Shown one piece after another: positions 20,832-25,630 of a DNA stretch of 64,000 bases. Under the pieces are notes generated by a model that was given only the letters and a program-made list of their open reading frames with translations, did no database searches and was not told the DNA's origin. Source of the stretch: Candidatus Calditenuaceae archaeon HR02. GTDB lineage: Archaea; Thermoproteota; Nitrososphaeria_A; Caldarchaeales; Calditenuaceae. The translations under genes were made by a program, and so were the position numbers. Numbering within the stretch: position 1 is the first letter of the stretch; every line of letters begins with the position of its first letter. The stretch is from NCBI GenBank assembly GCA_002898395.1, contig BEHE01000007.1, positions 9,048-73,047 of the forward strand, written 5' to 3'.

Positions 20832-21959
20832 TTACGTAGAACCACCAATCAATATGATATAAACGTGTCTAAACCACGCCAGCTTAAAAGCAGCATTATA
20901 GAAAGTGGTGGCGAGGTGTGTGGAGCGTTTTAGCGTAGGCCACGCCCGACCGTCTAAGCGGCTCGGGCGATTGGGAGTGGCGCGCTGAGGGCGTCCGGCC
21001 TAAGCCTCCGCCCGTACACGCCCACCCCATCAACCCCCTCTTCTAGGGGAGCCCTCGTCGGGGCCCAAGGCCCGTTGCCAGGCCCTATAGGCCCCGATTG
21101 GCCGCCTATTTTTGGGAGTGGCTTCGGGCTTAGATGCTTTCAGCCCTTATCCACAGGGGCGCGGCTGCCCGGCGCCGCCCTGTAGGACGACCGGTAAACC
21201 GTTGGCCCCGGCCCTCCGTTCCTCTCGTACTAGGAGGACCTTTCCCTCAGGCGGCCCGCACCCCCAGTAGGTAGAAACCGATCTGTCTCACGACGGTCTA
21301 AACCCAGCTCACGTTCCCCTTTAATAGGCGAGCAGCCTCACCCTTGGCCCCTGCTGCGAGGCCAGGAGGGGAAGAGCCGACATCGAGGTACCAAGCCGCG
21401 GGGTCGATGGGGACTCTCGCCCGCGACGAGCCTGTTATCCCTGGGGTAACTTTTCTGTCACCACCGGCCCCCACTGGTAGGAGCCGATGGATCGCTAGGC
21501 CCGGGTTTCCCCTCAGGACCCCTTGCGTTCGAGGGTCCTGTCAGGCCGGCTTATGCCCTTGCACTCTACAGCGGGTTTCTGTCCCGCCTGAGCCGACCTT
21601 TGGGCTCCTCCGATATCTTTTCGGAGGAGTGCCGCCCCAGCCAAACTGCCCACCAGCCGTTGTCCCAGGGTCAGGCCCTGGTTAGCGGGGCAGTCCGGAG
21701 TAGCCGGTGTTACATTGGCGCCTCCCCAGGCCCCCGGAGAGACCTGGATCGACGGCTCCCGGCTACGCTATGTACTCCAGACCACTCCGCAGCAACTGGC
21801 TGCAGTAAAGCTCCACAGGGTCTTCTCTCCCCACTGGGGGTTCGTGGACTGTTCGCCCACGTTATGTGGGTTCACGGGGCTCCGGGCCGGGACAGTGGGG
21901 CCCTCGTTGATCCATTCATGCACGTCGGAACTCACCCGACAAGGCATTTGGCTACCTTA

Positions 21960-22700
21960 AGCATGCCCGACCGAATGGTCGGGGTTGGACCATATCATCA
22001 CCCATTAAGGGTGCGCGGCGTATGGTCTCTGAGGATCCCGCCCTCAACTAATATTTTCCGGAGTTTCTCCGCCTTTTCAGGGTGTCTGAAACCCACCTTC
22101 TCCGAGAACTTCTCCACATTGTCCCACCCCATCACGGTTAGCCTCCATTGATAGTGTCTTCCCCATGTGTGGGGTTTTTTACGGTTATAGGTAGATGATA
22201 TCTCGTTTAACTGCAGTATGTGGTGTGCCTCTACAAGCACTTTTTTCGCGACCATGTCGATGCTGACGTAGGGATAGCGAAACTTCTTCATGCCCTGAGT
22301 CTGAACATCTATCCCGCAGTATCCTTCACTGTCGAACAGCCCCTTCACGACGTCGATATCGTGTTTAAACAATTCCGGTATCTGCGCGCTGACGAGCTTC
22401 CGCCCCTTCGGGAACCCGATCCTCAACAAGAAGTCATGTACCTTCCTAACATTCGTGGAGACTATGTAGAGGCTTTTACTTGCGCGCCGTATGTTTGGCT
22501 TGACTCCGAAAAGCTCTTCAACCGTGGCGGCGATAAAGTTGGCGAACTCGAAGTTAGGGTCTCGGCAGAAGACCGTGTAATAGTTGCCGTAGACGCCTCC
22601 GTCTCCCAGCATCACTCCAATGAGGTAGGCTAGACTCATCTGCTGTCCGCTGACCTTCAGCCTTTATAGCTGTTTCACAGGGCGGTTTCCTGCGGGTCGG
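21960..22700 (-). mobile_element. rRNA intron 1 (archaeal BHB-type, domain IV, just 5' of the GGTAGC...AAGGTAGCC block) carrying a homing-endonuclease ORF
   Basis: rRNA sequence conservation breaks between about 22700 and 21960 and resumes with CTTAAGGTAGCC. The segment contains a full LAGLIDADG ORF. Boundaries are approximate. Confidence 0.6.
21998..22639 (-). CDS. LAGLIDADG homing endonuclease (double-motif, intron-encoded)
   Basis: Motif 1 LAYLIGVMLGDGG and motif 2 VVKGLFDSEGY. 213 aa, the size of I-DmoI/I-PorI-class enzymes. Confidence 0.85.
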   Translation of the reverse strand: MSLAYLIGVMLGDGGVYGNYYTVFCRDPNFEFANFIAATVEELFGVKPNIRRASKSLYIVSTNVRKVHDFLLRIGFPKGRKLVSAQIPELFKHDIDVVKGLFDSEGYCGIDVQTQGMKKFRYPYVSIDMVAKKVLVEAHHILQLNEISSTYNRKKPHTWGRHYQWRLTVMGWDNVEKFSEKVGFRHPEKAEKLRKILVEGGILRDHTPRTLNG

Positions 22701-23444
22701 ATTCACGGTGCTACGGGATTGTTACCCGCGCGGGGTACCCATAGCCTCCTCCTTCCCCGCATACAGCCGCGTTTAACGACCCCCTTGAACTTGAGGGTCA
22801 GAGTTACCCCCGGCGCTAACCGGCCCTTATCCCGGTTGGACCCGGGGTTCAGGTACCGGTGCTGGCCAGGATTGAGGAGCCGTTCAAAGCCTTTCGGCCT
22901 AGCGGCTCCCTATGTTTTTATTAAACAGTCAGGACCCCCTTGTCACTGCGACCTACCAACCCACCCTCACCGGGCAGGAAGGCAGGCACCCCTTCTCCCG
23001 AAGTTACGGGGCCAATTTGCCGAGTTCCCTAGCCCGGAGTAACCCCAGACGCCTTGGCCTTCTCAGCCAGGGGCACCTGTGTCGGATCTAGGTACGGTCT
23101 CTCGGGATCGTTCCGGGCTCCCTTTTCACTGGCCCCAGGGTCCAGCCGAAGCGGCCTTAAGGCCGCCCCATCCCTCCATTCACCTGGTTCTCGCCATTAC
23201 GGCTCTCCCCAGGCTTGGGAGGTTAGACAGGGCTACGGCCCTGCTCGGCCTTACCTGAGGCGTCGGGAGCCCGGCTTGCGTCGCCGCACCTACCCGAGAG
23301 GCACCGGAATCTTAACCGGTTTCCCCTTCGGCCTACCCGGTTAAGGTCGGCCTTAGGACCGGCTTACTCCCGGCTGACGACGCATTGCCGGGAAACCCGT
23401 GCCCTTCCGGCGGAGGGGATATGGGGAGAGGTCGCAGGACCGTG

Positions 23445-24005
23445 TTCTCCCAAAAAGCGAACAGGTCAAGAAGGAAGGTATTGTAAACTCTGATTGAAAG
23501 TGTCCCGAATTTTGAACGTGAACTCCGTAAGCCCCACCTAACTGAAGGCTTACGGAACTGTGATAATGGTATGTTTAACAAGTTAGACCAGTATTCCTCC
23601 AGTTCCTTCACCCTGTCCGTCCACTCGTCCTTGCGGAGCTTGATTTGTAGCCTAGGCCTTAGCTCGCTTCTCGCTACTCCGAGTGTTTCGAGGAAGTTTA
23701 CCATAGCGAGTAGCTTGTTAGGATCGCTGTTGACGAATTCGAACCTCGTCTTCACAGTTTTAGGTCTTTTAGTGCCTTCACCAGCATAAAGACCAAGAAC
23801 GTACCGAATAGCACCGCTGAGACGTAACGGCGAATCTTCATTGCGCCTACGCGGCCGTTCCCGTACTTGAACCGAAGAGTCACCTTATCGTCCTCTACGG
23901 TCTTCTTAAGTACTTTGGTGTGGTCTAACGTCTCCGGAATGAGCTCTGCTAGGTCTACGTAGCTCATCCTTTAAGTAGAGTTACGTGACAACAAGTAGTT
24001 AAAAG
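23445..24005 (-). mobile_element. rRNA intron 2 (domain III region), about 560 nt, with a decayed endonuclease ORF
   Basis: AT-richer insertion between exon sequences GAGAGGTGCAGGGCCGTC (5') and GGTCCTGCGACCTCTCCCC (3'), which are mutually complementary and form a helix around the junction. The flanking exon sequence aligns to conserved domain III blocks. Confidence 0.5.
23455..23967 (-). pseudogene. Degenerate, frame-split homing-endonuclease remnant inside intron 2
   Basis: Two adjacent minus-strand ORFs in different frames (23752-23967 and 23333-23755). The second has a segment, DPNKLLAMVNFLETLGVARSEL, that resembles the second LAGLIDADG helix region of I-DmoI (NKALLEIVSRWLNNLGV). No intact first motif is present. 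Confidence 0.35.
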
Positions 24006-25589
24006 TTTGACGGCCCTGCACCTCTCTTTCCCACCCCTCTTCGCTGTCTACTACCACCGGGATCTACATTAGCGGCCGGTCCACGGGACCTCACGGCCCC
24101 GCTTCTACCCAACCGCTACGCCCCCCTACCCCCACCCACGCAGCGCGTGAGTGAGCCCGGGTTTCGGCGGCCCGCTTAGACCCGTCAATTTTCGGGGCCC
24201 CCATCCTCGGCGGGTAAGCTGTTACGCACTTCTTAGCTGATGGCTGCTTCTAAGCCTACAGCCCCGCTGTCTCAGGATGGAGACGCCCTTTGGTTTGTCA
24301 CTTAGCGGGCACTTAGGGGCCTTAACCCGCGGTCTGGGTTGTTCCCCTCTCGGTCCCGGAGCTTACCCCCGGTACCCCACTCCTGGGATCTACGGTGCCC
24401 GCGGATTCGGAGTTCGAAAGGAGAGTGGAGCCTCATCGGCCCCTTGCTCCCCCATCGGTGCTCTACCCCGCGGGCAGCCTCCCCCAGGGCTGTCCTGCGA
24501 GACACTTCGGGGGGAACTAGCTATCACCGGGCTCGATTAGCTTTTAACCCCTAGCCCCAGGTCAGGGGACCGATTTGCACATCAAGACCCCTATTCGGGC
24601 CTCCACCAGGGTTTCCCCTGGCTTCGCCCTGCCCAGGGCTAGATCGCCCGGTTTCTAGCCTCACGGGCGTGACTACAGGCCCTTTCAGACCCCGCCCCTC
24701 GCCGGAGCACACTCCGGCTGCGGGCATGTCGGTTTCCCCACGCCTACGGGCTTTCAGCCCTTAGGCTCGCCACACCCGTGAACTCCCCGGCCCGTGATTC
24801 AAGACGGAGTGCACGACCCTGGGATTGTCCCCACTCGCCCCTCACCGGGGCTTCGCAGGGAATGCCCTTTCGGGCCGTGCTCGTCTGTTACCAGCCGGTT
24901 TCAGGCGCTTTTCACCCCCCTCTCGGGGTACTTTTCACCTTTGGCTCACGCTACTGGTCCACTATCGGTCTTGGGACGTATTTAGCCTTGGAGGCCAGTG
25001 GCCCCCAACTTCCCGCACCATATCCGAGGTGCGGTACTCGGGGACCGGAGCATCGCCCCTCCAGCCTTCGCCTACGGGGCTATCACCCTCTCTGGCCCCC
25101 CATTCCAGGGGAGTTCGGCTCAGCATTCAGGGCGGGCCTCCGGCCCCATAACCCCACACTCCCCCCGAGTTAACCTCGGGGGGTTCGGTTTGGGCTGCTC
25201 CCCTTTCGGTCGCCCCTACTCAGGGAATCTCGTTTGATTTCTTTTCCTCCCCCTACTTGGATGCTTCCGTTCGGGGGGTTCCCGATCCCGGACTGAAGGC
25301 CCGGGAACGAGGTGGCCGAAGCCACCCCAGGAGATCCCATTAGGAGATCCCCGGATCAACGCCCGCCTGCGGCTACCCGGGGCTTATCGCAGCTTGCCAC
25401 GTCCTTCTTCGGCGCCCAAGCCGAGGCATCCACCGGCTGGCGTACCCCCGCTTAGTGCCAAGGCGCGGCCTACTTCGCCACGCTCCACACACCTCTGCGG
25501 CGCGGTCATAGGAAAGTATTAGCCTCCTCCCGCATTCATGCCCCTCAGGACTTCATGGCTGAGGAGCAAACATCTCCGTGCGCAATAGA

Positions 25590-25618
25590 TTGTTGTGGGT
25601 TGTTGCTTATAAATTTAT
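25590..25618 (-). promoter_or_regulatory. Putative TATA box/BRE for the stand-alone 23S transcript
   Basis: The reverse complement reads CCGATATAAATTTATAAGCAACAAC about 100 nt upstream of the processing-stem sequence GGTGTGTGGAGCG. Confidence 0.4.
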
Positions 25619-25630
25619 ATCGGGTATGCG

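Follow-up and report, generated by a model that had tools for sequence, protein, structure and literature searches.

A stand-alone 23S ribosomal RNA gene of a Caldarchaeales archaeon with a predicted bulge-helix-bulge processing stem, a bulge-helix-bulge intron and a putative group I intron

How is 23S ribosomal RNA (rRNA) made in an archaeon whose 23S gene spans 4.5 kb and has no 16S or 5S gene beside it? This question is raised by the 23S locus of Candidatus Calditenuaceae archaeon HR02, which lies in a stretch of 64,000 nucleotides (nt) of contig BEHE01000007.1; the whole 64-kb stretch is referred to as the window. HR02 is a hot-spring archaeon; its family, Candidatus Calditenuaceae, belongs to the order Candidatus Caldarchaeales, formerly called 'Aigarchaeota'. 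Computational analysis indicates that this 23S gene very probably constitutes its own transcription unit, is enclosed by a bulge-helix-bulge (BHB) processing stem and is interrupted by two introns of different kinds, a BHB intron (intron A) and a group I intron (intron B).

The Rfam model LSU_rRNA_archaea matches the window at 25457..20952 on the minus strand with 2574 bits and over its full length (model positions 1–2987). The matched span of 4,506 nt exceeds the model length of 2,987 owing to the presence of two introns, of 608 and 832 nt, within it. The first-pass annotation had treated 20860..25620 as plain rRNA and had overlooked both introns and the homing-endonuclease genes in them. As a lesson for annotation, a 4.5-kb 'LSU' (large subunit) call conceals mobile elements amounting to 1.4 kb, along with two protein genes. 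The gene is divided as follows, where L002 is a related genome with an intron-less 23S gene.

24028..25457, minus strand: 23S exon 1, 1,430 nt (Rfam alignment; boundary from intron-less L002 and the BHB cut)
23420..24027, minus strand: intron A, 608 nt, a BHB intron by its motif, inserted after E. coli 23S position 1287 in a hairpin loop
22794..23419, minus strand: 23S exon 2, 626 nt, 99.4 % identical to L002
21962..22793, minus strand: intron B, 832 nt, best read as a group I intron, inserted after E. coli U1923 (alignment to rrlH)
20952..21961, minus strand: 23S exon 3, 1,010 nt (Rfam and L002 alignment)

The spliced 23S of the window is 3,066 nt long, the same length as that of L002, with an identity of 98.9 %. 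The G+C content is 64 % in the exons, 48 % in intron A and 53 % in intron B.

Neither small subunit rRNA nor 5S rRNA gave an Rfam match anywhere in the window, and ARAGORN detected no tRNA gene there, a search that intron-containing or split archaeal tRNAs could escape. The flanks of the 23S gene within the window, 38.5 kb on the upstream side and 20.9 kb on the downstream side, hold no other rRNA gene, so the nearest possible upstream 16S gene is >38.5 kb away. The 23S gene is regarded as unlinked when no 16S gene lies within co-transcription distance, for which Brewer et al. use >1,500 bp. The scan therefore confirms the first-pass claim of a full 23S gene without a linked 16S or 5S gene. 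The same arrangement was found in relatives. The protein encoded upstream of the 23S gene has an HMGL-like domain and is 80–93 % identical to its counterparts in five related metagenome-assembled genomes (L002–L006), which are labelled Nitrososphaerota, Thermoproteota, 'uncultured archaeon' and Candidatus Calditenuaceae. In all five, the 23S gene follows directly after the HMGL-like gene, with no 16S or 5S gene within up to 10 kb on each side. Their 23S genes measure 3,066 nt (L002), 3,831 nt (L005) and 4,336 nt (L004), while those of L003 and L006 are cut by contig ends. In L008/L010 and L009, a stand-alone 23S gene has a rhomboid gene upstream and a histidyl-tRNA synthetase gene downstream, and L009 has no 16S gene in the 8.4 kb upstream of the 23S gene. 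Because the 23S gene stands alone among these other neighbours as well, the unlinked state is not tied to one locus.

It had been noted in advance that a 16S gene immediately beyond the window, placed so as to allow co-transcription, for example where a misassembly had broken the operon, would refute the stand-alone reading. The window holds no 16S gene, and six further related assemblies, representing two gene neighbourhoods, have a 23S gene without a nearby 16S gene; five of them share the upstream gene and the promoter block described below. An unlinked 23S gene is the normal arrangement in this lineage. The interest of the locus had been placed in the rarity of unlinked rRNA genes in cren/TACK-like archaea. 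Separate loci have already been shown in Aigarchaeota: the supplement of PMC8997704 draws the 16S and 23S genes of Ca. Caldiarchaeum subterraneum apart, and depicts a stand-alone 16S gene flanked by protein genes in Aigarchaeota SCGC AAA471-J07. These published loci make this ground for interest weaker than stated; the first-pass reading had the architecture right, but the claimed rarity is not supported, and the reading was incomplete.

The longest inverted repeat in the region flanks the 23S gene, with 34-nt arms at 25495..25462 and 20946..20913.

25462..25495, minus strand: 5' arm of the stem, with outer helix 25495..25481, central UGGC 25480..25477, bulge GAA 25476..25474 and inner helix 25473..25462
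20913..20946, minus strand: 3' arm of the stem, with inner helix 20946..20935, central GCUA 20934..20931, bulge AAA 20930..20928 and outer helix 20927..20913

When joined by a loop, the arms fold with −80.6 kcal/mol (z = −9.8 against 200 shuffles). The BHB search resolved the stem into a 15-bp outer helix, the central UGGC:GCUA helix and a 12-bp inner helix with the bulges GAA and AAA, and predicted cuts after 25475 in the 5' arm and after 20929 in the 3' arm, in a register that is ambiguous by 1 nt. The inner helix continues into the 5'/3' helix of the 23S rRNA itself, and the 3' arm is nearly invariant in L002, L004 and L005. The processing stem around the 23S gene alone, as proposed in the first pass, is borne out by the inverted repeat, its folding energy and the BHB search. 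In Haloferax, Sulfolobus and methanogens, the tRNA-splicing endonuclease cleaves BHB stems of the rRNA precursor, and circularisation of the rRNA follows; circular pre-23S or 23S rRNA has been described (Tang 2002; Danan 2012; Juttner 2020; Qi 2020; Schwarz 2020; Shi 2026). By analogy, cleavage of the stem and circularisation are expected in this archaeon.

Intron A carries the motif gagggg-UGGG-[AAA]-gagaggu / accucuc-CCCA-[UAU]-ccccuc at its junctions, as found by the BHB search. Cuts after the second base of each bulge (after 24028 and 23420) would join GGGAA to UCCCC, which is exactly the L002 sequence. Across five homologous introns, the motif is 100 % paired and 10 of its 17 pairs have changed on both sides, compared with 1–3 in controls with slid partners. 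The full pairing together with the compensatory changes strongly supports the BHB structure, and intron A is, as judged from this motif, a classic archaeal BHB intron. It is absent from L002–L006, and homologues occupy the same site in L008/L010, L009, L011, L012 and L013. L009 was left out of the structure work because of an N-gap and a duplicated exon piece in its 23S gene: at 12116..12215, an N run precedes a second copy of the opening 127 nt of 23S exon 3, a scaffolding artefact.

Most of intron A is occupied by an open reading frame (ORF), designated ORF A.

23333..23967, minus strand: ORF A, a single-motif LAGLIDADG-like homing-endonuclease gene with ATG at 23967, disrupted
Copies of intron A without an in-intron stop codon: window 23420..23967 (minus strand); L008 9894..10510; L011 2872..3609; L012 120..713; L013 221..824

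Three-frame translation showed that the frame is broken near 23803 by the loss of one G from a GGG run, and that the motif YVLGLYAGEG lies past the shift; in the DNA alignment with L008, the window reads TATTC-GGTACG against TATTCGGGTACG. Seven database homologues of 187–233 amino acids are intact and cover 96–100 % of the two-frame fusion. A 26-nt tandem duplication (IRRYV / IRYV) was considered as the cause of the frameshift and was rejected, as the homologue alignment indicates a simple 1-nt deletion. The lost G is either a real inactivating mutation in a decaying gene or a homopolymer or sequencing error. The Pfam profile LAGLIDADG_3 (PF14528) scores ORF A with E = 0.03 and 14.9 bits, below the cut-off of 22.5, and the frame is not intact; ORF A is LAGLIDADG-like by motif and context, with family membership unproven. 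A sequence search of the PDB with ORF A gave no match to any solved LAGLIDADG structure.

The ORF A family lacks a stop codon within the intron in all five copies, at protein identities of 39–67 %, and four of them keep the frame open right up to the final base of the intron. In the window, the frame ends at the TAG 23335..23333 within exon 2, 28 codons into the rRNA exon. L012 reads the exon in a different frame, and the exon-encoded tail is therefore not conserved as protein. If the intron were circularised, a stop codon would come 9–27 codons past the ligation junction. One idea, which we consider doubtful though worth stating, is that the circular intron A RNA is the actual messenger and that circularisation by the tRNA ligase completes the reading frame. 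If true, archaea would possess a naturally occurring circular RNA that encodes a protein and needs splicing for its expression. A literature search for ORFs of archaeal introns that cross the circle junction found no earlier description, yielding reference-list entries only.

At the boundaries of intron B, a strict search for a 3-4-3 BHB found no motif at the right place. The elements of a group I ribozyme could be assigned instead.

22799..22794 with 22783..22778, minus strand: putative P1 of intron B, exon GACCCU with the guide sequence
22771..22766 with 22019..22014, minus strand: putative P3
22760..22756 with 22696..22692, minus strand: putative P4
22691..22680 with 22043..22032, minus strand: putative P6/P6a
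22029..22024 with 21991..21987, minus strand: putative P7
22013..21999, minus strand: putative P8; 21983..21966: putative P9; 21962: terminal G

A one-base ambiguity of the boundaries resolves to a 5' exon ending in U and an intron ending in G in all five copies. P1 is formed by GACCCU of the exon and GGGGGUC of the intron, leaving a U·G wobble at the splice site (5/5 copies). A model comprising P1 and P3–P10, with the ORF removed, was built by hand for the window, L003, L004, L005 and L008. Over its 49 pairs, 98.7 % of the cells are paired compared with at most 52 % for slid partners, a percentage that is inflated because the model was built on the counted sequences. There are four compensatory pairs (two in P3, one in P6a and one in P8), and none in any slid control. 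The RF00028 alignment covers the J6/7-P7-P3'-P8-P7'-P9 core, comprising UCAGAGACCAUA...GAUGAUAUGGUCCAA, the P9 hairpin and a G near the 3' end, and the core strings UCAGAGACCAUA and GAUAUGGUCC are conserved in 5/5 copies of intron B. Insertion after U1923 places the intron at a recognised group I site. GUAUG (after P3) could seemingly pair with CAUAC (before P3'), but this pairing was discarded, as it clashes with P7 and is broken in L005; both strings match conserved single-stranded core elements, contrary to mutual pairing. Relaxed BHB pairings set by hand at the boundaries (exon GACC with intron GGUC; a 7-bp junction pairing) were likewise dropped because they gave the wrong splice product or were not conserved in L003–L005.

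Archaeal precedents exist for such an intron. RF00028 gave no significant archaeal matches, and subtype models revealed 39 archaeal group I introns (PMC6125680). LSU/1923 is listed for 10 archaeal IB4 introns, and group I and BHB introns have been reported together in one rRNA gene (PMC6125680). In particular, Ca. Caldiarchaeum subterraneum carries the group I intron IB4.9 at LSU/1923 (Nawrocki, Jones & Eddy 2018, PMC6125680). Intron B appears to be another member of this archaeal set because of the precedent at the same site and in the same lineage, for which RF00028 was likewise non-significant. It is best read as a group I intron, and we assume by analogy that its subtype is IB4.

The P6 loop of intron B contains an intact gene.

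21998..22639, minus strand: ORF B, a 213-amino-acid double-motif LAGLIDADG gene

Its 3' end overlaps P6a', P7, P3' and P8. The protein contains the motifs LIGVMLGDG and LFDSEGY and matches LAGLIDADG_3 (PF14528) with E = 3e-11 and 43.9 bits, above the cut-off of 22.5; orthologues are intact in L003, L004 and L008. A sequence search of the PDB with ORF B gave no match. Positions 1..1035 of the Logan contig DRR101361_26923 are 100 % identical to 22938..21904 of the window, covering the end of exon 2, most of intron B with ORF B, and the start of exon 3. That public sample therefore contains the same strain or intron. Exact-product look-ups found ORF B on this 1-kb contig only and gave no match for the MFS gene described below.

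Comparison by blastn with the intron-less L002 gene revealed the two inserts of the window and a third site that is filled only in L003 and L004.

L003 12115..12565 and L004 12330..12774: third-site BHB intron, 445–451 nt, near E. coli 488–494

In both genomes, the LAGLIDADG ORF at the third site (YLAGLIDGDG) is riddled with stop codons. The empty site lies at 24924/24920 in the window. The hairpin loop at this site would read GGAA after splicing versus GAGA in intron-less alleles, including the window. L005 has an intron at U1923 (13639..14402) whose ribozyme ends are those found in the window; its P8 is longer, and this intron carries an unrelated LAGLIDADG ORF of the …GLVDGEGCF… type. The conserved intron with a different ORF indicates that the endonuclease gene was exchanged independently of the intron, and the empty, intact and decayed states of the three sites in close genomes point to ongoing gain and loss by homing.

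The elements that would make the 23S gene a separate transcription unit, and the genes on both sides of it, are as follows.

27037..25631, minus strand (same strand as 23S): upstream gene encoding an HMGL-like domain, as in LeuA/CimA-type enzymes
25606..25620, minus strand: putative promoter, an A/T-rich stretch resembling a TFB recognition element and the TATA box TTTATAAG (25613..25606), read from the sequence
25496..25583, minus strand: predicted 5' leader of pre-23S rRNA, ~90 nt, with the hairpin CCUCAG...CUGAGG (six-genome alignment)
20883..20904, minus strand: T-rich trailer (CUUUC, CUUUUAAG), read from the sequence
20856..20863, minus strand: putative TATA box TTTATATC of the MFS gene, in a block GTTTATATCAT kept in L002 and L004
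20831..19638: downstream gene encoding an MFS transporter

The spacing is 173 nt between the HMGL-like gene and the 23S gene and 120 nt between the 23S gene and the MFS gene. These agree with the first-pass placement of a 'LeuA-like' gene ~170 bp upstream and an MFS gene ~100 bp downstream. A TATA sequence had been placed about 100 nt before the 23S 5' end. The element itself, ATATAAATTTATAAG at 25620..25606, stands, and its distance was loosely given, being ~110 nt to the stem and ~150 nt to the 5' end of the Rfam match. The block (G/A)TATA(A/G)ATTTATAAG(C/T)AACA is kept in six genomes (the window and L002–L006) with varying flanking bases, and is the most conserved part of the spacer between the HMGL-like and 23S genes. 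In L004, ~210 nt of unrelated sequence (11407..11615) lies between the stop codon of the HMGL-like gene and the promoter block, and this insertion leaves the distance from the block to the 23S gene unchanged; a mobile-element remnant and a small gene are candidates for the insert. Conservation picks up again ~22 nt past the block (TCTATTGCGCAC), at the expected start position. From the usual spacing between a TATA box and the start site, transcription is predicted to begin near 25583. The leader hairpin covaries, reading CUUCAG/CUGAAG in L002 and L004 and CCCCAG/CUGGGG in L006. The leader is conserved across the six genomes and includes the invariant stretch GGGCAUGAAUGCGGGA. The T-rich trailer is the likely transcription stop of the 23S gene by analogy with archaeal oligo-T terminators, and the block GTTTATATCAT lies ~25 nt before the start codon region of the MFS gene (ATG at 20831). 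The promoter-like element, kept in six genomes and staying with the 23S gene across the L004 insertion, supports the first-pass view that the 23S gene has its own promoter and would be transcribed alone.

Other features were recorded along the way. A full-length archaeal RNase P RNA is located at 8651..8949 on the minus strand (Rfam RF00373, 156.8 bits). At 28321..29748 (minus strand), an ORF of 475 amino acids contains two matched stretches of the ThyX (Thy1) domain; a typical ThyX has about half this length, and the ORF may be a duplicated or fused form. In L009, the model for the bacterial small signal recognition particle (SRP) RNA matches 2328..2414 on the minus strand with 42 bits against a threshold of 40, which is probably part of an archaeal SRP RNA or a chance match.

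These elements suggest a maturation route in which transcription would start ~25 nt past the TATA box and yield a pre-23S rRNA with a ~90-nt leader and a short T-rich trailer. The flanks of the 23S rRNA would pair into the stem, the tRNA-splicing endonuclease would cut both bulges, and an RNA ligase would close the excised pre-23S rRNA into a circle as in other archaea. Both introns would have to be removed before use in the ribosome, by different routes. Intron A would be excised by the same endonuclease and ligase through its own BHB motif. Intron B would self-splice, with an exogenous G attacking after the exon U that is held in the U·G pair with the guide sequence, and the terminal G of the intron then serving exon ligation. 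The LAGLIDADG homing endonucleases would spread the introns into intron-less 23S alleles such as that of L002.

Several points weigh against this account. The rRNA scan covers one 64-kb window, in which the 16S gene of this genome was not found, and another operon with linked rRNA genes may exist beyond it. The stem is almost invariant among the relatives, which is conservation without covariation, and the minimum-free-energy fold gives a 6x6 internal loop rather than a BHB. The group I model was built and counted on one and the same set of five sequences, of which three are close relatives, and RF00028 scores intron B at 17.5 bits (E = 0.073), below the gathering score of 50. Every step of cleavage and splicing, like the promoter and the start site, is predicted. 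With these points in mind, we weighed four alternatives. If the non-linkage were an assembly artefact, a real 16S–23S operon would have been broken or mis-joined. Metagenomic rRNA operons are indeed often mis-assembled (PMC8997704), and the 23S gene of L009 does hold an N-gap with a duplicated exon piece. However, the same junction of protein gene, promoter and 23S gene recurs in five assemblies, which represent several deposits by accession prefix and one of which has it on a 1.55-Mb contig (L002, JBEPYO010000001.1), and the second neighbourhood (L008/L010 and L009) is likewise devoid of an upstream 16S gene. The 38.5 kb upstream of the window 23S gene consist of ordinary genes, and the conserved promoter and closed processing stem are contrary to a broken operon, making such an artefact extremely improbable. 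Nor is it at all likely that the window gene is a spare or decaying copy burdened with selfish introns while working rRNA comes from a linked operon elsewhere. The two introns, the frameshifted endonuclease gene and the scan of the window alone would fit such a copy, but the gene has complete exons, with an Rfam score of 2574 bits and 98.9 % identity to the orthologue that lacks introns, the splicing motifs of both introns are intact, and this locus is the only 23S gene seen beside this neighbourhood in all relatives.

The 23S gene could also lack a promoter of its own and be transcribed by read-through from the HMGL-like gene, in which case the TATA-like string would be a chance A/T-rich patch or a terminator. 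Only 17 nt lie between this string and the stop codon of the HMGL-like gene, both genes are on the same strand, and promoter use is a prediction here. Against this, the string is the best conserved part of the spacer in six genomes and keeps its distance to the 23S gene despite the ~210-nt insert of L004, and the 23S genes of L008 and L009 have other upstream neighbours. Moreover, rRNA requires far higher transcription than an amino-acid biosynthesis gene. Read-through as the source of the 23S rRNA is accordingly improbable, and transcription from the promoter-like element is preferred. Intron B might instead be an archaeal intron with a relaxed bulge-helix-loop motif that is removed by the splicing endonuclease in the same way as intron A. 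In its favour, BHB substrates occur in the host in the form of intron A and the stem, and the RF00028 score is below threshold. Splicing endonucleases of the heterotetrameric type accept relaxed motifs. An enzyme of this type has been reported for the relative Ca. C. subterraneum, along with many tRNA introns at non-canonical positions. Yet the would-be central helix at the boundaries of intron B pairs at two of four positions and forms no 3-4-3 motif, whereas the group I hallmarks (U·G pair with the guide, terminal G, covariation in P3, P6a and P8, UCAGAGACCAUA and GAUAUGGUCC) are present in all five copies. In addition, U1923 is a classic group I site at which the same kind of intron has been reported in Aigarchaeota. 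Endonuclease-mediated removal of intron B is highly improbable on this evidence, and a group I intron is the better reading.

One gene would provide three substrates for two RNA-processing systems (the BHB stem, the BHB intron and the group I ribozyme), and sister genomes supply the empty-site alleles. The three intron sites, the swapped endonuclease of L005 and two decaying endonuclease genes represent several stages of the homing cycle in one genome family. The locus also indicates that a TACK-related lineage can lose 16S–23S linkage and keep a perfect BHB stem, which bears on the question of whether lineages that unlink these genes also lose the pathway through circular pre-rRNA.

BHB introns with LAGLIDADG genes are known in the 23S genes of Desulfurococcus mobilis (I-DmoI) and Pyrobaculum organotrophum; archaeal BHB rRNA introns were reportedly treated by Lykke-Andersen et al. 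in 1997 and by Dalgaard & Garrett in 1992. Intron A resembles them in its helix-bulge-helix-bulge-helix junctions, in the LAGLIDADG ORF that fills most of the intron and in the expected excision and circularisation by tRNA-splicing enzymes, but differs in its site after E. coli 1287 and in the missing in-intron stop codon (5/5 copies). The processing stem shares with known BHB pre-rRNA stems the inverted repeat at the 23S flanks and the two 3-nt bulges separated by 4 bp. It differs in that it would form on a monocistronic 23S transcript and not on a 16S–23S precursor; after the predicted ligation, a 7-nt loop (GCUAAAA) would remain, with no obvious GNRA tetraloop. Intron B and IB4.9 of Ca. C. 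subterraneum agree in phylum-level lineage, host gene, the U1923 site, the LAGLIDADG gene inside and the BHB introns alongside, and differ in length (832 nt versus 1,133 nt). With respect to linkage, unlinked rRNA genes are classic in Thermoplasma acidophilum and Nanoarchaeum equitans and also occur in many Asgard and DPANN archaea. A few TACK members are unlinked (Juttner & Ferreira-Cerca 2022, PMC8997704), and the figure of Brewer et al., as quoted in PMC8997704, is ~22 % of the TACK genomes analysed. As in Thermoplasma, N. equitans, C. subterraneum and other unlinked archaea, the 16S, 23S and 5S genes are not adjacent here and the 23S gene would be transcribed alone. Reviews describe Thermoplasmata and N. 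equitans as having no predictable BHB in their processing stems, whereas the window 23S gene keeps a perfect 15 + 4 + 12 bp BHB stem. Every component of the locus is of a described kind, and the closest precedents are found in the same lineage.

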